Positions 7,649 to 63,536 of a DNA stretch of 64,000 nucleotides are shown here, in pieces (position 1 is the stretch's first letter; each line of letters starts with the position of its first letter). Made by a program: the position numbers and the translations under genes. Source of the stretch: Escherichia phage vB_EcoM_SQ17; the sequence record MW882907; one strand, 5' to 3'. A model generated the notes under the pieces. That model was given only the letters and a program-made list of their open reading frames with translations, was not told the origin of the DNA and ran no database searches.

Positions 7649-8173
7649 TCATTTTAGCAAAATAAAATCAACTTGTTCTGCCAATGAACGTCTAAACATT
7701 AATTGACAACTTCCGAGGATGAAATCAGGTGCTTCATAGACCGCGATGTAGTATCCTTTAGCTTTCAAGAGTTCAACATCCACCTGGTCATCAAACCATG
7801 CATAAACCGCGTCAACACTTTCAAATCCAAAATAGAACCCTTGAGCCCAATCTTCACTCAATTCAAATGTGTGCTCAATTCTATAGTATCTTAAGATATT
7901 TTGTTCAAGGAGTTTGTCTTCATTTACTGTAGGACGATTAGGGACATTATAGTTGTCGCCGTGATGGTAGAAGTTACCTGAGAGTATTCCATGCTTATCA
8001 AGGAACTCCCATGTTTCTTCAGAGTTGTCGGTGCCCGACCAACCATACGGCGAACGAGGTTCTTTATTCCAAGAGGTTTCCCAAATTCTGACGGCTTTAC
8101 CATCTTCGATAGCAATTCCTGGTAATGATTCACGTTGAGTACAAAAACTACGTTCTACGCGGTAAACTAACAT
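7649..8173 (-). CDS. hypothetical protein
   Basis: 174 aa; ATG at 8171-8173 preceded by CAACCAGAGGAGAA and an early promoter. Confidence 0.55.
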   Translation of the reverse strand: MLVYRVERSFCTQRESLPGIAIEDGKAVRIWETSWNKEPRSPYGWSGTDNSEETWEFLDKHGILSGNFYHHGDNYNVPNRPTVNEDKLLEQNILRYYRIEHTFELSEDWAQGFYFGFESVDAVYAWFDDQVDVELLKAKGYYIAVYEAPDFILGSCQLMFRRSLAEQVDFILLK

Positions 8174-8199
8174 ATTATTCTCCTCTGGTTGATATGGTT

Positions 8200-8228
8200 A
8201 TAATATCAAAACCGGAGGAGAAGTAAAC
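8200..8228 (-). promoter_or_regulatory. T4-type early sigma70 promoter (-35 GTTTAC, 17-nt spacer, -10 TATTAT)
   Basis: minus strand reads GTTTAC-ttctcctccggttttga-TATTAT; about 30 nt upstream of the ATG at 8173. Confidence 0.55.
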
Positions 8229-8232
8229 AACT

Positions 8233-8652
8233 TTATGCAAAAGATGCTGGACAATATTTTTTGATTTGGAACTCAGGAACTACCATGAACTGCCCAGCGA
8301 AAACAATGTTATAAAGCTTAACACCATCTTCTACCCATTGGTCCGAAATAAAACCAGCAACTTGATTCGTTGTCCACGGTGTTCCATCTGTCGCAGCGGC
8401 AATGGTGAACTCGTAGTCTTTTACAACTAAAACTGATCTGCCCAGTTTCCATTTGAACGCTTTTTCTTCTGGTTCAATAAATTGGCTTTTAACGTAACCA
8501 ATGTTACCATCGGCGTCACGAACTTTAACTTGGTTACGACCAAAAACCGGATCACTCACAGAAAGAACTTCAACCAACTTCCCGGCAACTTTAGAGCGAG
8601 AAGCAACAGATACATATACGTAATCACCTGTAGAGAGATTTACAATATTCAT
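8233..8652 (-). CDS. hypothetical protein, member A of a tandem paralog triplet
   Basis: 139 aa; C-terminal GFISDQWVEDGVKLYNIVFAGQFMVVPE shared with the two ORFs upstream. Confidence 0.6.
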   Translation of the reverse strand: MNIVNLSTGDYVYVSVASRSKVAGKLVEVLSVSDPVFGRNQVKVRDADGNIGYVKSQFIEPEEKAFKWKLGRSVLVVKDYEFTIAAATDGTPWTTNQVAGFISDQWVEDGVKLYNIVFAGQFMVVPEFQIKKYCPASFA

Positions 8653-8661
8653 AATAATTCC

Positions 8662-9117
8662 TTAAGCTTTACGAGGAGACACATAACGAGTGATTTCAGA
8701 TTCTTTAACAACTCGGAAGTCACCTAAGAATACGATATTGTATAACTTTTCACCATCTTCAACCCATTGGTCACTAATGAAGCCACACATAGTATCAGTT
8801 TTGCTTGGATAACCGTATTCATCGATGAAGTCAAATTCTTTATCAGTCTGGAATTCAACACCTTTACACAAGGCCCATTTGAACTGTGCATTAGGTTCAG
8901 TAGAAGCAAAATGAGCGCTCACAGGAGTTTCCAAGAATTTAGGACTTACGTAAGCGTGCTGAGTATCCTGACGTCCAAAACTAGGAATGATTCGAACTTT
9001 AACTTCTTTAATGCGTCCCATGCCATTTGTGCGAAGTCCTACCACTTCAACCAGACGACCTGCGGCTTTAGACCGGGATGCAGTTGATACACGCTTAATT
9101 TCACCAATAGTAATCAT
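8662..9117 (-). CDS. hypothetical protein, member B of a tandem paralog triplet
   Basis: 151 aa; GFISDQWVEDGEKLYNIVFLGDFRVVKE; N-terminal STASRSKAAGRLVEV also similar to member A. Confidence 0.6.
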   Translation of the reverse strand: MITIGEIKRVSTASRSKAAGRLVEVVGLRTNGMGRIKEVKVRIIPSFGRQDTQHAYVSPKFLETPVSAHFASTEPNAQFKWALCKGVEFQTDKEFDFIDEYGYPSKTDTMCGFISDQWVEDGEKLYNIVFLGDFRVVKESEITRYVSPRKA

Positions 9118-9146
9118 AATTTTTCTCTCTTTGTTAAATTGAATTC

Positions 9147-9176
9147 ATTATACTCCATCCATCCTTGGATGTACAA
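9147..9176 (-). promoter_or_regulatory. early promoter with inverted-repeat spacer (-35 TTGTAC, -10 TATAAT)
   Basis: minus strand TTGTAC-atccaaggatggatgga-gTATAAT upstream of ORF 8662-9117. Confidence 0.5.
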
Positions 9177-9178
9177 CA

Positions 9179-9673
9179 TTAATTTAGAATATTAACTACT
9201 GCACTACGTGGAACCACACTAAAATCACCGGCATGAACAACGTTCAGAAGTTCAACCCCATCTTCAATCCACTGGTCAGTTACCCATCCATTTACTGGAC
9301 CATCGAATGGGCGTCGAATTGAAACATATTTACACAATAAATCAGTAGGCTCAATAGGCTTAATCAGAGTACCGTACATACAAACGATATCCATATCAAA
9401 GTGGAGACCATCTTTAACAGGTGCTTCTTCAATCAACAGTTCAAAGTCGGTGCTTGGGATGGCAGTAGTAGAAATTGTACCGTATGAATTTTTAATTTCT
9501 AAGAATAACCAAGGGCCTTCAACTTGTTTAATGAAGTTAACAATAGTGAAACTATTACCTTGAGTGGCACCTAAAATTTCACAAAACTTTTCATAAGCTC
9601 GCACTGAAGCACCGTACCAGTTGATTTGTTTTTCGTCTTTCAGGATGTAAGTAGCCATAGTATTGATATTCAT
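9179..9673 (-). CDS. hypothetical protein, member C of a tandem paralog triplet
   Basis: 164 aa; GWVTDQWIEDGVELLNVVHAGDFSVVPR matches the shared C-terminal motif. Confidence 0.6.
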   Translation of the reverse strand: MNINTMATYILKDEKQINWYGASVRAYEKFCEILGATQGNSFTIVNFIKQVEGPWLFLEIKNSYGTISTTAIPSTDFELLIEEAPVKDGLHFDMDIVCMYGTLIKPIEPTDLLCKYVSIRRPFDGPVNGWVTDQWIEDGVELLNVVHAGDFSVVPRSAVVNILN

Positions 9674-9704
9674 AATGTTTTTCCTGTTTGGTTAAGATAG
9701 AAAG

Positions 9705-9734
9705 ATTATACTCCAACCATCCTTGGTTGTAAAC
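9705..9734 (-). promoter_or_regulatory. early promoter (-35 GTTTAC, -10 TATAAT) with CAACCA-N4-TGGTTG inverted repeat in spacer
   Basis: minus strand GTTTAC-aaccaaggatggttggag-TATAAT; about 48 nt nearly identical to the cassette at 52405-52455. Confidence 0.55.
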
Positions 9735-9739
9735 TGGTT

Positions 9740-10417
9740 TTATCGCTGTTTTACACTTAACGGGTCAGGATTCTCAGGGACATCTTCAAGGCCAAGCGCA
9801 TAACGCTGAGCATATTTTAACATCAAAATATCTTTAGCACAATCATGAATACTATCATGGGCAACGAATCCTTTTAGCGTACCCATCGGTAATGGACACA
9901 TACTTAATCCTCGTGTCAACGAGTAAGCTTCGATTGCCGTACGAATATCACGTTGAGCCCAGAATTTAACCGGTTCTAATTTATCAGTATCAATCTCTGG
10001 TTCAGGAACACCTTCATCACGATAGAGGTCACGAATCAAATCGACCAATATCGGGAAGTCAAAGCTCATACCACGGCACCACATCTGTGATTTCCATTGG
10101 TCAACTTTATTAGCTCGGCAATAATCTAAAAAGATTTTAATGCCTTCAAGCGTAGTGACATCGTCTTCAGACGGAGCCAAGTTTTTACGTGCTTCAGCCG
10201 ATTGTTCTTTCCACCATTTCATAGTGGATTTAGCGAAAACTCGCTTACCTTTCTGAGAAGCTAAATTAAATTTAATTCGCTTACCTCGTTGAACAAGTTC
10301 TTCAAATGATTCAACAACTTCAGGGTCGGAATTATATGCAATAACCGCAAGGTCAATAACAGCCGCTTTTGATGTATTGCCGAATGTTTCAAAATCTATA
10401 ATAACATCAGTGCTCAT
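9740..10417 (-). CDS. dexA: exonuclease A (DEDDh 3'-5' exonuclease)
   Basis: 225 aa; N-terminal VIIDFETFG exonuclease motif I; size and position immediately downstream of dda match T4 DexA. Confidence 0.85.
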   Translation of the reverse strand: MSTDVIIDFETFGNTSKAAVIDLAVIAYNSDPEVVESFEELVQRGKRIKFNLASQKGKRVFAKSTMKWWKEQSAEARKNLAPSEDDVTTLEGIKIFLDYCRANKVDQWKSQMWCRGMSFDFPILVDLIRDLYRDEGVPEPEIDTDKLEPVKFWAQRDIRTAIEAYSLTRGLSMCPLPMGTLKGFVAHDSIHDCAKDILMLKYAQRYALGLEDVPENPDPLSVKQR

Positions 10418-10426
10418 AATTTTCTC

Positions 10427-11740
10427 TCAAATAAAATGGACGTCAAACCGACCACGAGTTGTGCCAACATACAATAACTGTTTAGCTAATTCTGAATCAG
10501 CGTAATGGATACACGGTGTATAAACAAAGGCCGTGTCAACAGACATACCCTGGGCCTTATGGAAGGTTGATACTGGTAGTGCCTTCACCTTAGTGAACAT
10601 ACGTTTAGCATCCCAGAATTCGCTCCATGGGGCTTTACCACCTTTATTCCAAAATTTGTATGTTTCTGCGGTCTTAGCCAAAAACAAATTGAATTTATAA
10701 AGCTCTTCTTCAGAAGAAATAACCTTTATATCTTCGCGGATGTATTCTTCATCATCCCCATATGTTTCTACTGTAAGATTCCAGTATCGTATCATATATT
10801 CGCCTGAAACACCACGTGCTTTAACGAATGTAGACGTTTCTACAGCATCTCGAATACGAACGAATTGGCCGTTATTGAAAAGCATTTCGGTCATATTTTT
10901 ACCATCTAGCTTATATGTCTTAGTAAACGGCTCTTGTAGAACAATGACTTCGTCTTTAATAAATGGTTTTTCTGTTTCAAGAAGTTTTCGGCGAATAATT
11001 GAATTTAACTTGTCCACCGACTTATTTGTGAATGCCATCATTCGATTTTCGAAAAGGTCTTCAGGAGTTTTAACGACGTTAAAATAGTTCATCATATACG
11101 ATTTAAGGTCTGTATATCCGTGAACACCATGTCCATCAACTACTTTATCATAAATCCATTTGCCATTACGAATATCAGTCGCAACATCAATAATCGGTGC
11201 ATTGCTACGTTTAACTTCTGTAAGGTTGCATTGCACGAAGTCTTTGTGGGTGAAGAAAGGACTTAGATACGCAGTTGATTCACCTGGGTCTACCGGACGA
11301 ATCTGGCATCGGTCGCCGATTCCAATTACTGTACACCATTTAGGGATACTAGCTAACATTATTTTAAACAGAGAACGGTCGCACATTGACGCTTCATCAA
11401 ATAACAGTACACGGCACAAGGCTAAGTCGGGAACCTTTTTCTGTTCAAACAGTACGTTTTCTTCGTATGTAGTTGGGTTGATTTTAAGAATGCTATGAAT
11501 AGTCGATGCTTCTTGACCCGCAAGTTTGCTTAGAACCTTTTTAGCAGCATGTGTAGGGGCTGCTAAAATAATACCTGATTCTCCAGAAGAAATAAGGGCT
11601 TCAACGATGAATCTAGTAAGGGTTGTTTTACCTGTACCAGCAGGTCCATTAATAGTTACATGATGTTTCTTTTCTTTAATAGCTTCCATAACAACGTTGA
11701 AGGCGTTTTTCTGGCCTTCAGTCAAATCATCAAATGTCAT
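10427..11740 (-). CDS. dda: Dda DNA helicase (SF1B)
   Basis: 437 aa; Walker A GPAGTGKTT, Walker B LLFDEASM; N-terminus matches remembered T4 Dda. Confidence 0.9.
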   Translation of the reverse strand: MTFDDLTEGQKNAFNVVMEAIKEKKHHVTINGPAGTGKTTLTRFIVEALISSGESGIILAAPTHAAKKVLSKLAGQEASTIHSILKINPTTYEENVLFEQKKVPDLALCRVLLFDEASMCDRSLFKIMLASIPKWCTVIGIGDRCQIRPVDPGESTAYLSPFFTHKDFVQCNLTEVKRSNAPIIDVATDIRNGKWIYDKVVDGHGVHGYTDLKSYMMNYFNVVKTPEDLFENRMMAFTNKSVDKLNSIIRRKLLETEKPFIKDEVIVLQEPFTKTYKLDGKNMTEMLFNNGQFVRIRDAVETSTFVKARGVSGEYMIRYWNLTVETYGDDEEYIREDIKVISSEEELYKFNLFLAKTAETYKFWNKGGKAPWSEFWDAKRMFTKVKALPVSTFHKAQGMSVDTAFVYTPCIHYADSELAKQLLYVGTTRGRFDVHFI

Positions 11741-50732: not shown

Positions 50733-51138
50733 TATTTTTCCTTTCATCGATTAAATATGCAATGCCAAATACAATACATGTAATAAAACCTGTGATACAG
50801 ATAGAAACCAACAACACTGTACCAAAGAACCAAATCAAGTTATCTTTAGTAGTTTGTTTGATATCCATCTCACGAATTTCTATAGCTATCGTATCACCTT
50901 TATTCAGAAGCGTATAAAACGATGGCGATACACGCATGTCAAAAACTCGTCCTTGCTCATCTTTATAGACTGCAATAAATTCTAATTTAGAATATTTTCC
51001 TGTAGATTGGCCTGAGATTAATTCCACTACCTCCACAGGAATTACTTTAGTTTCCATGTAAGTATTCTGGCTGTTCCAAATGAATGGAATGATGGCAAAA
51101 ACTAAAGCTGCAATAAAACAACGAAGGCTATATCTCAT
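50725..51138 (-). CDS. membrane protein
   Basis: 137 aa with N- and C-terminal hydrophobic segments. Confidence 0.5.
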   Translation of the reverse strand: MRYSLRCFIAALVFAIIPFIWNSQNTYMETKVIPVEVVELISGQSTGKYSKLEFIAVYKDEQGRVFDMRVSPSFYTLLNKGDTIAIEIREMDIKQTTKDNLIWFFGTVLLVSICITGFITCIVFGIAYLIDERKNNV

Positions 51139-51443
51139 TATAATGTTCTCTCAAATTTGTGGAAGCATTTACGGCATTTCAATTTCAAGTTATCGGTGGT
51201 CCAGTTAACCAGCTGGACTTGGATAGTTCCACATTCCGGGCATGGATGTTTTGCTGCCGATTTGGCAGCATTTTCACGTCGTTCAACCATTTTCATTATT
51301 TCGTTCCATGCCGGAGGAACGAACTCTTCTTCACCGTGGATTTTATCTCGCTGAACAAATTCAATCTTTGAACTATCGTCAATAAACTTAACCAAGCCAT
51401 GATTAGTGCTCATATCAATATCCTCTAAAAGACGTAGTTTCAT
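51138..51443 (-). CDS. zinc-ribbon protein
   Basis: 101 aa; CPECG ... CRKC four-cysteine ribbon at the C-terminus. Confidence 0.5.
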   Translation of the reverse strand: MKLRLLEDIDMSTNHGLVKFIDDSSKIEFVQRDKIHGEEEFVPPAWNEIMKMVERRENAAKSAAKHPCPECGTIQVQLVNWTTDNLKLKCRKCFHKFERTL

Positions 51444-52393
51444 TATAACACCTCAATGACATTTCGTAAACCATCAGCTTTTGCATTCAGAGCTTTTAAT
51501 GATTTAGTTTGTTTTGCAATCTGGGCTTCGACTTCTTTCAGACGAGATTTGAGATATTCGCGTTCTTCTCTTAAATTATCAACTTTTTCTACTTTAGGTT
51601 CTTTAATAGGCTTAGGCTTATACTCGTTAGGGTTCTTCAACTTAATTTGAATGCGAGAACTGTATAACATTGAATCGTTATCTTCGGATTCGTCGAACGT
51701 TTCAACAACATCCATAGTCTCTAACAATGTAATAAGTTTATAAGACAACGAACGAATAGTTTTGTTGTGCTTATTAATTTCTTCGGCTTTCATGGTACCG
51801 AGATTACGTGAGTAGTAATAAGGAACCTGGATATCAATTGACAATGATGCGTTACCATTACCAGTTGGTTTGAATACTGCAGTAACCCAATCTTTAACAT
51901 GAACTTTATTTGTACGACCATCACCGCCTGTGAATAATTTACGTGAATGTTTAAAAAGCATATTCACTTGATTATTAAATTCACAAGCAAATTTATCAGC
52001 AAATTTAGTTTCAGGAATGGTAGATAACCAATCAGCCAAATGAGTCTTTTTAACATCATTAACAATAGTGAATTCAACCAAATCGGTTTTAGATGTCACA
52101 GATTTAATAAAGCTCGGCTTCATAAAGTTTTTAATGTTATCGCGAGCTACAGTAGAAGATAATAAACGAGAACGTTTGAACCATTGAAGCAGTGTCCCTA
52201 ATGAATGAGAATATGCATTCTGAGTATCTTTACAGATATGATTTTCTTGGCCTGTGTATGTACCAAAATCGCGAAGAATACCACTTACTACAACTCGGTG
52301 TGGAACATCAAATCCTAATGAACCAGAAGCACGTTGGGCATGAACGTTAGCGATAAGACCTGCAAAATAATCAATGTAATGTGAACGTGTCAT
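51443..52393 (-). CDS. hypothetical protein with C-terminal coiled coil
   Basis: 316 aa; heptad-rich C-terminal 60 aa; own early promoter. Confidence 0.5.
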   Translation of the reverse strand: MTRSHYIDYFAGLIANVHAQRASGSLGFDVPHRVVVSGILRDFGTYTGQENHICKDTQNAYSHSLGTLLQWFKRSRLLSSTVARDNIKNFMKPSFIKSVTSKTDLVEFTIVNDVKKTHLADWLSTIPETKFADKFACEFNNQVNMLFKHSRKLFTGGDGRTNKVHVKDWVTAVFKPTGNGNASLSIDIQVPYYYSRNLGTMKAEEINKHNKTIRSLSYKLITLLETMDVVETFDESEDNDSMLYSSRIQIKLKNPNEYKPKPIKEPKVEKVDNLREEREYLKSRLKEVEAQIAKQTKSLKALNAKADGLRNVIEVL

Positions 52394-52420
52394 AATATTT
52401 TCCTCTCGTTAAGATAGAAA

Positions 52421-52450
52421 GATTATACTCCAACCATCCTTGGTTGTAAA
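52421..52450 (-). promoter_or_regulatory. early promoter cassette, near-identical copy of 9705-9734
   Basis: minus strand GTTTAC-aaccaaggatggttggag-TATAAT with the same flanking leader as the copy at 9.7 kb. Confidence 0.55.
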
Positions 52451-52455
52451 CTGAT

Positions 52456-53391
52456 TTATGATTTTAATGCATTCATTGCGTTAAAAAGTTTAGAGTACTG
52501 CAACTGGAGCTTGGTAACTACTTGTTGAGCATCACGAAGCTTAGCTTGTGCTTTGTCAAGTTCAACAGACAGTTGGTCCACAGTGGCTTTGATTTGATTA
52601 TAATAGTAATCTTCGGCAGGAAGAAGACCGTTAGAGATTTCCAGTTTAGTCGACGGTGAAGTGTATATAGATGGAGCAGTAAAATATGCACCTTGAACTT
52701 CAGCATTGCCAATTGGGGTTGTAGTAATTGACGCTTCGAACGTTGCATTTTCCTTTTTAAGATTTTGATAGTATTCAGAGTCTTTGTGCCACCATGGCGC
52801 AGGAACCTTTTTACCAATAGATACACGAGCCTGGATAGCGATATGGCCCTTATTCTTGATAGGGTTGATAATATTAAGCTCACGAGAATAAATTGCTTTA
52901 ATCTGGTGGATATTATCACCTAACACTTCCAACGCTTGGTGGAATACACGAGCAACGTTATCATTCTTAGGTTTATACGTAAGAGTGAACTCGTTCTCAC
53001 TGATAACCATGATTTCTAACTTATCGTAAGTATATTTCAAATGTTTCATGTTAATTGCTTGAGGACGAATACGAGAAGCAATGGCCATCAGATTGTTAAG
53101 GTTATTCCTGAACTGCTTAGCGAAATATTGTCCTTCACCGCCAATACAAAAATTACGAAGTTTCTGTTTGGCTAATAAACGGCTGAACTCACCATTTTTA
53201 ATGAACTCTTTAACGGGTGTGTTAGTAACGCATTCAAATTGAGTAAACTTACGAGAATTAATCCCATAATATGAACAGATTTCCTCAATCTCTTCAGGAG
53301 TCTTTACAGGCATACGGATAGGATTAGGTCCTGGGGTATATGCGTTCGAGGTAAATTCTTTGATAAGTTCTCTACGTGTAATAGAAGCCAT
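52456..53391 (-). CDS. hypothetical protein with C-terminal coiled coil
   Basis: 311 aa; C-terminal VDQLSVELDKAQAKLRDAQQVVTKLQLQYSKL. Confidence 0.5.
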   Translation of the reverse strand: MASITRRELIKEFTSNAYTPGPNPIRMPVKTPEEIEEICSYYGINSRKFTQFECVTNTPVKEFIKNGEFSRLLAKQKLRNFCIGGEGQYFAKQFRNNLNNLMAIASRIRPQAINMKHLKYTYDKLEIMVISENEFTLTYKPKNDNVARVFHQALEVLGDNIHQIKAIYSRELNIINPIKNKGHIAIQARVSIGKKVPAPWWHKDSEYYQNLKKENATFEASITTTPIGNAEVQGAYFTAPSIYTSPSTKLEISNGLLPAEDYYYNQIKATVDQLSVELDKAQAKLRDAQQVVTKLQLQYSKLFNAMNALKS

Positions 53392-53417
53392 TTTATATTC
53401 CTCATGTTGAAAAATTT

Positions 53418-53446
53418 ATTATACTCCAACCATCCTTGGTTGTACA
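53418..53446 (-). promoter_or_regulatory. early promoter cassette with inverted-repeat spacer (-35 TGTACA, -10 TATAAT)
   Basis: minus strand TGTACA-accaaggatggttggag-TATAAT upstream of ORF 52456-53391. Confidence 0.5.
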
Positions 53447-54442
53447 TCATTCCTTAAGAAGTTTTACTACTTGAATAAGATTAGCTCGTTCCGTTTTATT
53501 TTTACCATTTAAGCCTGCTAATCGTGAGATTTCATCGTCAGTCTGTTGAATAGTTACATTAAGTTCGTTAATCAAAGCTTCAAAGTATTTGATTTGCTCA
53601 GCATGTTTTGATTCAAATTTCTGAACCGGAATAACGTCTTGGTTTAGTTCATCAATAAGGTCTTTAAGAGCATCTTCTTGGTTGATATCATATTCAACTT
53701 CTTTTATTTCTTCAACGAGCTCGTCTTTATATCTAACGTCTTTTAGTCCTGGTGCTGGTCCTGAAATCTCTTCTTTAAGAGTACAAACATATCCAATACG
53801 GTATCCAATGCCGTCTCGCTTGATAACAACTTCGTCGATAAATCCACAATGTTTAAGACCAGAGCCGATTAGGTCAAAATATCCTTGACGTCGTCCTTCA
53901 AACGTTACACGAACTACTAAGACAGTTTTACCTGCAACCTTTTGAAGCTCACATTTATAAAAGTCTGTTGAACCTGAATAACGTGGATGAGTTTTAAAGT
54001 TCATCTGACGATCTAGGCCCATTTGTAAGCGTGCTGATACGGCCATAAAACGTGTTTGGTTCTCGTTAAGATGAGCAACAATCCATTTCAAAGGCATTTT
54101 ACACTGTTCACGACCGAACAAATCAGTACGTCCTAGATTACGCAGAATGTTGTTAGAGTTAATCATCGACAGAACGTTAAGTTTATTCAGCGCGCTGAAG
54201 ATTCCATCGGCCATTGATTTTCCGTAACCTTTACACGCTTTAATAAGCGCTCGCGGTAGATTAGTATAAATTTCAGACGGCATATGAAAATCAAATTTAC
54301 TAGTCAGTAATTGATGAACTTGGATAGCAATTTGCTCATAATTAAGTGCTCTGCGATCATTATGGTCTTTAAACCATACTTTAATCTGTGAAGCACATAA
54401 ACCGTTAATTTCATGTTTTACCGCATCAGATGTAATGCTCAT
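53447..54442 (-). CDS. hypothetical protein with C-terminal coiled coil
   Basis: 331 aa ORF. Confidence 0.5.
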   Translation of the reverse strand: MSITSDAVKHEINGLCASQIKVWFKDHNDRRALNYEQIAIQVHQLLTSKFDFHMPSEIYTNLPRALIKACKGYGKSMADGIFSALNKLNVLSMINSNNILRNLGRTDLFGREQCKMPLKWIVAHLNENQTRFMAVSARLQMGLDRQMNFKTHPRYSGSTDFYKCELQKVAGKTVLVVRVTFEGRRQGYFDLIGSGLKHCGFIDEVVIKRDGIGYRIGYVCTLKEEISGPAPGLKDVRYKDELVEEIKEVEYDINQEDALKDLIDELNQDVIPVQKFESKHAEQIKYFEALINELNVTIQQTDDEISRLAGLNGKNKTERANLIQVVKLLKE

Positions 54443-54504
54443 AACTATTTCCTCAGATTGAATTGGAACTCAAAACCATTATAACCCGTCCTTGGGTAAA
54501 GCGT

Positions 54505-55032
54505 TTATGCGTGAACCGTCTTTAAACGTTCTTCAAATTTCCGAAGAGTACTAATACGTTCTGCTTTCTGTTTTGTATAGTTTGCAATACGTTCTGAAGT
54601 GAGAGCGTATCGTTCATTTACTGTTTCTTTCATGAAGTCAGGGATTTCACGAGAAGCTTTAATTTCATCAAACTTATCGAGTACTGCCTGGTCTTCAGCG
54701 ATTAAATTTTCGTACATCTCGATATCTTTCTTGATAAACTCGATATCTTCCTGTGTTACTTTGGATAAACGAGATGCTTTATCCTTTTTGTACTGCTCGT
54801 TAGTTTCACGAGACCAGAATAATGTACGTTTTTTGTTAGTGTTTTTGTAGACTTCCACAATTCCAACTGAATCGATGATAGCAATCCAATTCCAGCGAGA
54901 TTTGAAAATCTGACCTCCGTCCACGGTAATCTCGTTACCATAAGCAACGTCATTAAAGAACTTGCTTTGTGCTTCAGATTTAAATTTACCGTCGTTATAA
55001 TTTACCAGGTTGAAAATATCTTTAGCGTTCAT
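54505..55032 (-). CDS. hypothetical protein
   Basis: 175 aa ORF. Confidence 0.5.
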   Translation of the reverse strand: MNAKDIFNLVNYNDGKFKSEAQSKFFNDVAYGNEITVDGGQIFKSRWNWIAIIDSVGIVEVYKNTNKKRTLFWSRETNEQYKKDKASRLSKVTQEDIEFIKKDIEMYENLIAEDQAVLDKFDEIKASREIPDFMKETVNERYALTSERIANYTKQKAERISTLRKFEERLKTVHA

Positions 55033-55090
55033 GTTTTACCTCCAGTAGTTGATAGGTCTATAATAACATAACCATAGACCTTGTAAACAA

Positions 55091-55480
55091 CTAAAAGAAA
55101 CTTTTTTCGGTATTTTTTCCACTGAACCAAACCGATTTAGGAATTTTCTGTAATTTTTCAGATTTAAGTTTCTCTTCCTGTTCTTTCTTGTATGCATCCT
55201 TGTCGTACTGGAACAACTCTAGGGCATTCTTTTGTAGACGGTCTAAGGTAATTAAGGCTTTAGTTTTTCCTTTCAAGGAAGAGTCCTGGCGAACCTCCTC
55301 GCTATATTGCATCGTAGAACTAACCATACGATGAGCATACAGTTCGACTGCGGCTTTAATTTTTTGCATAAAATCCATAACATAGCCCTCTTTGATTTGT
55401 ACAACATTATTTTTAAATATTTCTATGCCCTCAGTAGGTTCCTGGTGTCCTTCTTTGAGGTAAGCCATATGATTATTCAT
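55091..55480 (-). CDS. hypothetical protein
   Basis: 129 aa ORF. Confidence 0.45.
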   Translation of the reverse strand: MNNHMAYLKEGHQEPTEGIEIFKNNVVQIKEGYVMDFMQKIKAAVELYAHRMVSSTMQYSEEVRQDSSLKGKTKALITLDRLQKNALELFQYDKDAYKKEQEEKLKSEKLQKIPKSVWFSGKNTEKSFF

Positions 55481-59629: not shown

Positions 59630-59656
59630 AACGTTCTCCTCTAGTAAGTAAGGTCT

Positions 59657-59685
59657 ACTATAACACAACCTGAGGAGAAGTAAAC
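59657..59685 (-). promoter_or_regulatory. early promoter (-35 GTTTAC, -10 TATAGT)
   Basis: minus strand GTTTAC-ttctcctcaggttgtgt-TATAGT upstream of ORF 59450-59629. Confidence 0.45.
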
Positions 59686-59693
59686 TGCTAAAT

Positions 59694-59724
59694 GCAAAAA
59701 AGCCCCAACCTTTCGGAAGGGGCA
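59694..59724 (-). terminator. rho-independent terminator downstream of rI
   Basis: minus strand GCCCCTTCC-gaaa-GGTTGGGGC hairpin followed by TTTTTT. Confidence 0.5.
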
Positions 59725-62252: not shown

Positions 62253-62791
62253 TCTTTTATTTCCAGTAGTTTGGTTGATTTAAGGTAATTAGCCTTTTCT
62301 AGGACTTCAGAAGCATATTTACTTCCAGCACTTGTCTTCCATCCCGCATTATATGAGGATATAGCTTTTCTTATATCCCCGTTATGTATATTTAACCAAT
62401 AAGAAAATTCGATATAAGCCCATCTGGCTGAATTAGACCGCTTAGATAGCATTTTCTTAATTTGGGCATCAGTCATATTATAACCAAGCTGGTTAATTCT
62501 TGCCCTCATTGTTGGTAGATAATTTTGGAACATTCCATACGCATGGTGACCTTTCTTATCTTTAAGATTAATACCGGCAGATGATTCCTGCCATAGTATT
62601 GCGGCCATTATGTATCCAAGTCCTTTCTTATGCATATTTTCATGCGTTTTAAATTTTCCATCCTTAGAAAACTGTTCCCCAAACTGATAAGCATAATTCA
62701 AGTTATCGAGTTGGACATTACTAAAAGTATGCTCGGAGCTATGTGCTGATAACGAAAGAGCAAATAGACCAGCGAGTAGTGCTTTTCTCAT
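62249..62791 (-). CDS. periplasmic lytic transglycosylase (SLT domain)
   Basis: 180 aa; signal peptide; catalytic ES-motif LWQESS and downstream SYNAG. Confidence 0.6.
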   Translation of the reverse strand: MRKALLAGLFALSLSAHSSEHTFSNVQLDNLNYAYQFGEQFSKDGKFKTHENMHKKGLGYIMAAILWQESSAGINLKDKKGHHAYGMFQNYLPTMRARINQLGYNMTDAQIKKMLSKRSNSARWAYIEFSYWLNIHNGDIRKAISSYNAGWKTSAGSKYASEVLEKANYLKSTKLLEIKE

Positions 62792-63258: not shown

Positions 63259-63287
63259 TTTTGATTTCTCCTCTAGTTGACAGGACT

Positions 63288-63316
63288 ATAGTAACACATC
63301 TAGAGGAGAAGTAAAC
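63288..63316 (-). promoter_or_regulatory. early promoter upstream of regB (-35 GTTTAC, -10 TACTAT)
   Basis: minus strand GTTTAC-ttctcctctagatgtgt-TACTAT, followed by GAGGAGA ribosome-binding site. Confidence 0.5.
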
Positions 63317-63320
63317 AACT

Positions 63321-63536
63321 TTATTGATAAAATGGAGTTAAAGCCCAAGATTCTTTAGATACCATATCGGCGAAATGCCTCATCTCTTCGATTTGGCGCC
63401 GACGCTGGTCGGCATAGTCTTCTTCGCCTTCTTCCTTACAATCTTCAAGGTCTTCTTCAAGATACTTTAAGTATTCACTACAAATTTTGTTGACCTTTTC
63501 TTGAAAGTCCAATAACCCAGTAATAGTAGAAGCCAT
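63321..63536 (-). CDS. hypothetical protein
   Basis: 71 aa acidic ORF. Confidence 0.45.
   Translation of the reverse strand: MASTITGLLDFQEKVNKICSEYLKYLEEDLEDCKEEGEEDYADQRRRQIEEMRHFADMVSKESWALTPFYQ

Follow-up and report, generated by a model that had tools for sequence, protein, structure and literature searches.

Putative early promoter cassettes with a spacer hairpin in an RB69-like phage

Four copies of a putative early promoter cassette

The window, meaning the whole 64,000-nucleotide stretch of DNA that was analysed, is 97-99% identical to the Mosigviruses SSE1, pEK20 and JS09, and its source is read as an RB69-like T-even phage (Mosigvirus). Genes around all four repeats described here are on the minus strand throughout, in the order dda, dexA, motB.1, motB, a motB-like ORF and motB.2 near 9 kb, and nrdC.6-like, nrdC.5-like and nrdC.3 near 52 kb. 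The features are as follows.

8662-9117, minus strand: motB, 151 aa, downstream of copy 2 and putatively driven by it; paralogous to the ORFs at 8233-8652 and 9179-9673
9147-9175, minus strand: copy 2, between motB.1 and motB; -35 TGTACA at 9170-9175, hairpin CATCCA-AGGA-TGGATG at 9156-9171 (compensated allele), -10 TATAAT at 9147-9152
9179-9673, minus strand: motB.1-like gene, 164 aa, between copies 1 and 2; missing in phages VIPECOMC06 and AV118
9705-9734, minus strand: copy 1, between dexA and motB.1; -35 GTTTACA at 9728-9734, hairpin CAACCA-AGGA-TGGTTG at 9714-9729, GGAG, -10 TATAAT at 9705-9710
51443-52393, minus strand: nrdC.3, 316 aa, downstream of copy 3 and putatively driven by it
52422-52451, minus strand: copy 3, between the nrdC.5-like gene and nrdC.3; -35 GTTTACA, hairpin at 52431-52446, -10 at 52422-52427
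52456-53391, minus strand: nrdC.5-like gene, 311 aa, between copies 3 and 4; missing in p000v, F2, WFK, AV114 and PTE-Eco05
53418-53446, minus strand: copy 4, between the nrdC.6-like and nrdC.5-like genes; -35 TGTACA at 53441-53446, hairpin at 53427-53442, -10 at 53418-53423

Two tandem triplets of paralogues occupy these neighbourhoods, at 8233-8652, 8662-9117 and 9179-9673, and at 51443-52393, 52456-53391 and 53447-54442. The motB-like ORFs have in common the C-terminal motif GFISDQWVEDG..LYNIVF, and the nrdC.3/.5/.6-like ORFs, with 16-21% identity to nrdC.3, have a common terminal motif, L.N/Q-A/V...L. In the RB69 reference NC_004928, nrdC.5 (extracted locus 1949-2973) has a C-terminus unlike that of the 311-aa ORF of the window (52394-53391), leaving a gap of 122 nt where the window has coding sequence; the reference seems to carry a frameshift or a sequencing error here.

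The original prediction described near-identical cassettes at distant loci, and a repeat search found just that: four copies, at the coordinates and of the kind described, with none expected by chance. Three sites, 9706-9731, 52423-52448 and 53419-53444, are exact matches to a 26-nt core, TTATACTCCAACCATCCTTGGTTGTA, and 9148-9173 matches it with two mismatches, both on paired positions, that keep the inverted repeat; 100 dinucleotide-preserving shuffles yielded no match to it. The exact three-copy core is one base longer (A at 9705), or 27 bp. The repeat finder, which grouped the four copies as one family, gave 98% identity over 50 nt for 9691-9740 versus 52408-52457, and 68% identity to the reference over 50 nt for the 9.1 kb and 53.4 kb copies, in which the core is exact or near-exact. 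The palindromic spacer also stands, with CAACCA-N4-TGGTTG exact in three of the four copies (9714-9729, 52431-52446, 53427-53442). Copy 2 holds a compensated form that had gone unremarked, CATCCA-TCCT-TGGATG, in which both arms are changed and complementarity is preserved. A 60-nt cassette query was found in 209 phage records, almost all of them Mosigviruses, at two to four places each, with a partial match in Dhakavirus-like phages. Because T4 is not among the 209 matching records, the exact cassette is lineage-specific.

Read on the minus strand, every copy (4/4) consists of GTTTACA or TGTACA, a 17-bp spacer and TATAAT, copies 1 and 3 having GTTTACA, and copies 2 and 4 TGTACA, which differs from TTTACA at one position. 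In their regions the copies rank highest as sigma-70-type matches, with 11/12 and 10/12 positions in agreement. Each cassette occupies an intergenic gap of 55-66 nt, and its -35 starts 0-5 nt past the upstream stop codon; in copy 4 it abuts the upstream TGA stop (53447-53449) directly. The order is upstream stop, -35, 17-bp spacer, -10, a leader of about 22-26 nt, SD and ATG, and the predicted start precedes the ATG by 21-26 nt. T4-type early promoters have an A-rich UP-like region around -40 to -44; in the window, the 12-20 nt upstream of copies 1 and 3 are rich in A (gcgataaaacca, aaatcataaatca), those of copies 2 and 4 less so, and the stretch belongs to the 3' end of the preceding gene. 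In copy 1 the conserved 5'UTR extends to about 9691. The copies lie directly 5' of motB.1, motB, nrdC.3 and the nrdC.5-like gene, in the correct orientation.

The early signature of T4 has GTTTAC at -36 to -31 (PMC1524935), and the same paper (Nolan et al. 2006, Additional file 3) lists the predicted RB69 early promoters Pe:8387, Pe:8947, Pe:51019 and Pe:52042. Each is orthologous to one of our four copies: Pe:8947 to copy 1, Pe:8387 to copy 2, Pe:51019 to copy 3 and Pe:52042 to copy 4, with an offset of about 788 bp between window and RB69 near 9 kb, and with Pe:51019 and Pe:52042 sitting in the RB69 gaps nrdC.5|nrdC.3 and nrdC.6|nrdC.5. In the record of phage NBG1 the dexA|motB.1 copy is annotated as a promoter. 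The T4 GenBank and RefSeq records have no promoter features in the nrdC region, and a literature search on T4 start-site maps or Mosigvirus 5' ends returned nothing relevant. Host sigma-70 RNA polymerase would start about 7 nt past the -10 of each copy and, as consensus and context suggest, the copies would drive motB.1, motB, nrdC.3 and the nrdC.5-like gene. The four repeats are thus very probably copies of one T4-type early promoter cassette on the minus strand. The early-promoter call of the original prediction agrees with the -35, spacing and -10 of the T4 early consensus, with the placement 5' of early-gene orthologues, and with the RB69 orthologues predicted as promoters; as a consensus-based reading it is well founded, and as a prediction it is already in print.

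Gene gain and loss between the copies

Copies 3 and 4 lie 996 bp apart and bracket the nrdC.5-like gene. Phage p000v is without this gene, and at its junction the downstream side is of the 52.4 kb type and the upstream side of the 53.4 kb type; because the flanks derive from different copies, the crossover is placed inside the common 27-bp core. Of a 1251-bp query, phages F2, WFK, AV114 and PTE-Eco05 retain the same 255 bp as p000v. In VIPECOMC06 and AV118, dexA is joined straight to motB, with motB.1 absent, through a single chimeric cassette whose hairpin and -35 side come from copy 1 and whose leader comes from copy 2; here the crossover falls within ATTATACTCCA, the -10/GGAG segment, outside the hairpin. 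Precise gain or loss of the gene between two copies is therefore seen at two loci in at least seven genomes (at least five without the nrdC.5-like gene, two without motB.1), which as natural indels may be insertions or deletions and, since genomes may share ancestry, need not be independent events. Three junctions were read, and all three hold a chimeric cassette.

The copies have 11-27 bp of exact identity in common and so should offer the phage recombination system patches of homology. An exchange between adjacent copies would delete or insert the intervening gene and leave expression of its neighbours intact. In all likelihood the copies are recombination substrates of the kind described for PeSL (promoter-early stem-loop) cassettes, for which modular shuffling was reported in RB49/phi1, T4/PST and KVP40/nt-1 by Arbiol et al. 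(PMC2839356) and Comeau et al. (PMC4122927). That dispersed repeats might serve gene shuffling had been proposed from the window, and comparison of gene order among relatives upholds it: the gene between copies goes missing, and every junction read is a chimera. The role is nothing new in kind, but it provides clean natural examples for the RB69 group, in which 11-27 bp of promoter identity suffices for a gene to be gained or lost with its neighbours still expressed.

Gene gain and loss exactly at the cassettes, together with short inverted arms flanking an asymmetric core, might also describe the site of a site-specific recombinase that moves gene cassettes, and Arbiol et al. left a dedicated recombinase open (PMC2839356). 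This is very improbable. In the motB.1 deletion both arms of the hairpin come from one parent and the crossover is outside the hairpin, evidence against a site-specific exchange at the loop, and no special enzyme is needed, because T4-type recombination works with less than 50 bp of homology (cited in PMC2839356).

A further sequence difference was observed among the copies. Downstream of the -10 in the 52.4 kb copy (52416-52421), the window and RB69 have CTTTC, as in the 9.7 kb copy, and other Mosigviruses (including OZ035759) have GAATC, which is near the 9.1 kb copy. This difference suggests patchy gene conversion among the copies.

A spacer hairpin with a constant loop and complementary arms

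The spacer palindrome is one form of a wider stem-AAGGAY-stem hairpin found just 5' of the -10. Arms of further alleles, in mRNA sense, and a related promoter of the window are:

Dhakavirus-like phages: CATCC and GGATG
Gaprivervirus: CTTCC and GGAGG
T4, upstream of nrdC.3: AGCC and GGCT
T4, upstream of nrdC.4: TGCCAC and GTGGTA
T4, upstream of nrdC.7: TTATACC and GGTATAA
Mosigvirus, upstream of the nrdC.6-like gene: ACCC and GGGT
54478-54505, minus strand: related promoter 5' of the nrdC.6-like gene, predicted from sequence alone; CGCTTTA (MotA-box-like), N13 and TATAAT, with hairpin ACCC-AAGGAC-GGGT

The promoter at 54478-54505 is not in the RB69 middle-promoter list of Nolan 2006. Since two hairpins, those of nrdC.7 in T4 and of the nrdC.6-like gene in Mosigvirus, follow the MotA-box-like CGCTTTA, the hairpin occurs also in apparent middle promoters. 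At T4 nrdC.3 the -35 and -10 are degenerate (TTTAAA, TATAAA), yet the hairpin is preserved, one pair having changed from A-U to G-C on both sides. Genome-wide scans found eight hairpin sites in a Mosigvirus, versus 1.15 in shuffles, and at least four in a Tequatrovirus; T4-like phages have at least five, counting nrdC.3. Every hairpin site found is on the early strand and closely follows a stop codon, with an SD and ATG downstream of it. The distance from upstream stop to loop end is 15-21 nt, the hairpin begins 4-10 nt past the stop, and its position relative to the -10 shifts by 0-4 nt between promoters. The palindrome had been proposed as common to one regulon; it is not peculiar to the four copies, as the same hairpin is present in other early and MotA-box-like promoters of Mosigvirus, Dhakavirus, Gaprivervirus and T4.

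Two regions of T4 bear on this class as separate observations. Near-identical hairpin-spacer promoters, GTTTACTTT[A/G]CCACAAGGATGTGGTATAAT, precede rIIA.1 and nrdC.4, at a distance of about 47 kb from each other (OZ209023, extracted locus about 2450 and 49887). The motB leader (NC_000866, extracted locus 643-791) has a GGGACC...GGTCCC repeat around TATAAT, followed by a second, degenerate GGAGTATAAA that resembles the Mosigvirus cassette. A 9-bp AGGA hairpin at 62664 of the window (minus strand) is inside a 180-aa ORF and was placed outside the class, and an Rfam search of 8000-10500 and 51000-55200 gave no relevant hit at E<=1. In IMG/VR, a pattern of 17 bases found 16 loci, Dhaka-like and Gapriver-like alleles included; with 14 fixed bases, the matches listed were mostly chance, and an NrdC.3-based locus search found four to seven loci. 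Because IMG/VR has few coliphage T-evens, an annotated phage collection was used.

Among 14 distinct variants (an earlier covariation set had 10), neither the AAGGA loop nor the C-G pair that closes it ever varies. Beyond them come pairs that are C-G or A-U, and two further pairs occur with four pair types each and are paired in 14 of 14. Overall 92.9% of cells are paired, against 26-49% in controls with the partner slid by one to three columns, and none of 500 shuffles reached the observed score. The variants were first gathered with a stem filter, a bias that later scans partly corrected: in a scan without the filter, every intergenic AAGGAY site ahead of a -10-like hexamer has a stem of 4-8 bp, and almost all chance hits in coding DNA lack one. 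The spacer palindrome is therefore probably a hairpin under selection, in which the AAGGAY loop is constant and the arms are free in sequence but complementary.

Only two wobble pairs were seen, both in mRNA sense only (CTTCC/GGAGG, and G.U at T4 nrdC.4 versus A-U at rIIA.1), too few for mRNA-sense action to be firm. If the A/Y flanking the loop is counted as a pair, three independent U-to-C changes pair only antisense. The assignment of a strand of action from wobble pairs was dropped, the cases being few and the answer hinging on a loop of 4 or 6 nt.

These variants bear directly on the proposal, made with the original prediction, that the inverted repeat could be an operator. On this reading a dimeric phage or host regulator would bind between -35 and -10 and control the motB and nrdC genes as one regulon. 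Dyad symmetry in the spacer is in the classic operator position, the motif recurs ahead of several early genes, and the invariant centre CC-AAGGAY-GG of the 14 variants suggests sequence-specific recognition. That centre is asymmetric, however, and fits a dimer poorly; the outer arm positions vary among A-T, T-A, G-C and C-G and still remain complementary, which a base-reading protein would not demand; the CTTCC/GGAGG allele is asymmetric as duplex DNA and pairs as RNA; and the element moves relative to the -10 and is found in MotA-box-type promoters as well. With arms that change freely yet stay complementary across all 14 variants, an operator is not favoured, and we consider it quite unlikely.

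Templated quasipalindrome correction, known from T4 mutagenesis, could in principle give arm covariation without selection. The palindrome might accordingly have no function of its own, having been inherited by duplication of promoter and gene and kept by such correction and by gene conversion. Much of the repetition is indeed by descent, since the downstream genes are tandem paralogues (three motB-like; nrdC.3/.5/.6-like), and the copies swap sequence patches, as after the -10 at 52.4 kb, while the thermodynamic stability of the hairpin is unremarkable. Against this, the hairpin is kept between orthologues only 54% identical (nrdC.3, T4 versus Mosigvirus) and between paralogues of about 20% identity; it also stands ahead of unrelated genes, namely rIIA.1, a 65-aa ORF, a 54-58-aa ORF and a 166-aa ORF; and an invariant loop is inexplicable by correction of arms. 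A palindrome without function is thus unlikely, if less so than an operator, and a selected hairpin is the preferred reading.

Proposed role of the hairpin and comparison with known systems

The hairpin is small, with a stem of 5-6 bp and, in isolation, a weak folding energy of -6.9 kcal/mol. In a context of 80-90 nt it folds no better than shuffles (z -0.03 to -0.85), and at the 9.7 kb copy another fold is preferred in context. Pairing of the spacer with the downstream SD is absent in the cassette. The loop is SD-like, and in the Mosigvirus cassette GGAGUAUAAU comes next. Two candidate elements at the hairpin were set aside. A RegB site at GGAGUAUAAU is no more than a possibility, agreeing at only 3-4 of 7 positions with the target consensus GGAG-RAYARAA (PMC3014915), and the T4 nrdC.4 and nrdC.7 versions are without GGAG. 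A mini-ORF from the AUG in AAGGAUGG was rejected because ACG replaces this AUG in three lineages and because its length and sequence are unconserved.

Because the hairpin is upstream of the local start site, it can exist as RNA only on read-through transcripts, and these are expected because no terminators separate these genes. The hairpin would act as RNA on transcripts from upstream promoters, where it would mark a cistron boundary as a processing or stability signal, a weak attenuator or a site of 30S binding, possibly through its SD-like loop. We hold such RNA-level action on read-through transcripts to be a tentative proposal, at somewhat under even odds. The original prediction's alternative of an RNA hairpin common to the regulon fares accordingly in part: covariation favours a hairpin, but the hairpin is not on the local transcript and is not specific to the four copies. 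Taken together, a promoter cassette that is also a recombination substrate and that carries a selected hairpin with a role on read-through RNA has, in our estimate, a probability of about 0.6.

If the hairpin does act on read-through RNA, one gene would have two differently handled mRNAs, local and polycistronic. A bolder reading, which we regard as unlikely though somewhat less so than a palindrome without function, makes the AAGGAY hairpin a dedicated cis-acting RNA signal of T-even phages, its loop read by a factor and some 5-8 early genes per genome placed under shared post-transcriptional control. Candidate readers of the loop would be 30S (anti-SD), a nuclease such as RegB or RNase E, or a phage protein; the factor would set processing, stability, anti-termination or translation at each cistron boundary, and the hairpin would be placed inside spacers because the gaps between genes are too small to hold it elsewhere.

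The hairpin might instead be the terminator half of a classical PeSL, stopping or attenuating upstream transcription so that each gene uses its own promoter. A PeSL is a promoter plus a stem-loop, lacZ fusions showed termination by the RB49 stem-loop (PMC2839356), and the present hairpin does begin within 10 nt of the upstream stop codon. Yet no U-tract follows its short stem, a terminator scan of the promoter regions does not call it, it folds weakly, and published PeSL stem-loops are upstream of the promoter, not in the spacer (PMC4122927, Fig. 3 legend). We judge a terminator to be improbable, slightly more so than an operator, and retain the selected hairpin, with action on read-through RNA as its tentative role.

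Other promoters of the window hold complementarity of different kinds. At the promoters at 8228 (8178-8246, minus strand) and 59685 (59635-59703), and similarly at 63266-63334, a spacer TTCTCCTC is complementary to the SD GAGGAGAA about 30 nt downstream (8 bp exact; p about 0.01 each versus shuffled spacers), and through this predicted pairing read-through transcripts could hide the ribosome site, local transcripts not. At the promoters at 55088, 19620 and 59236 (minus strand) the -10 is inside AGGTCT...AGACCT, GGACT...AGTCC and TAGGACT...AGTCCTA, respectively, inverted repeats that could form only on read-through RNA. The leaders at 52394-52421 and 53392-53417 (minus strand) have predicted hairpins in which the SD (GAGAGGAAA, GAGGAAU) forms part of a small stem, on its 3' side, and in this folding model the ribosome site may be partly masked even on local transcripts of both leaders.

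Promoters and shuffling are already known, and the hairpin seems undescribed; no description of a spacer hairpin was found in the literature searched. The hairpin is the more useful result, being conserved in T4 as well as in RB69-like, Dhaka-like and Gapriver-like phages and always inside the spacer after a stop.

Several known elements invite comparison. The nut boxB of lambda is a small hairpin with a conserved purine-rich loop and a free stem, sited at operon junctions on nascent RNA, and the cassette hairpin resembles it by analogy, being likewise small, with a conserved purine-rich loop and free stems. To our knowledge there is no N-like factor in T-even phages, and the CGCTTTA beside two of the hairpins is more simply read as a MotA box. 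In T4, promoters of the genes e, soc, 49 and I-TevI lie in hairpins that sequester the ribosome binding site. There, as proposed here, the structure forms only on transcripts started upstream of the promoter, so that local and read-through RNAs differ; those hairpins pair with the SD, whereas the cassette hairpin is self-contained and has no SD pairing.

The closest likeness is to T4-type early promoters as predicted in RB69 (Nolan et al. 2006), with which the copies agree in -35, spacing, -10, and position and orientation before early-gene orthologues. The text of that paper (PMC1524935) does not mention the near-identity of the four promoters, and the words spacer, hairpin and stem-loop are absent from it. 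PeSLs (Arbiol 2010, Comeau 2014) are likewise repeated intergenic early promoters with a stem-loop, SD and ATG, and the likeness, known for our cassette from its sequence, extends to plastic regions, to indel borders between close relatives and to gene loss between neighbouring copies. Mini-circles arising by exchange between adjacent copies are also among the traits of PeSLs. The cassette differs in that its stem-loop lies inside the 17-bp spacer and not upstream of the promoter, is short and without a U-tract, and has an invariant AAGGAY loop. A PeSL-type upstream stem-loop would be impossible here because the -35 starts 0-5 nt past the stop and leaves no room. The repeats are thus members of the T4-type early promoter class that behave like PeSL cassettes minus one defining feature, the position of the stem-loop.
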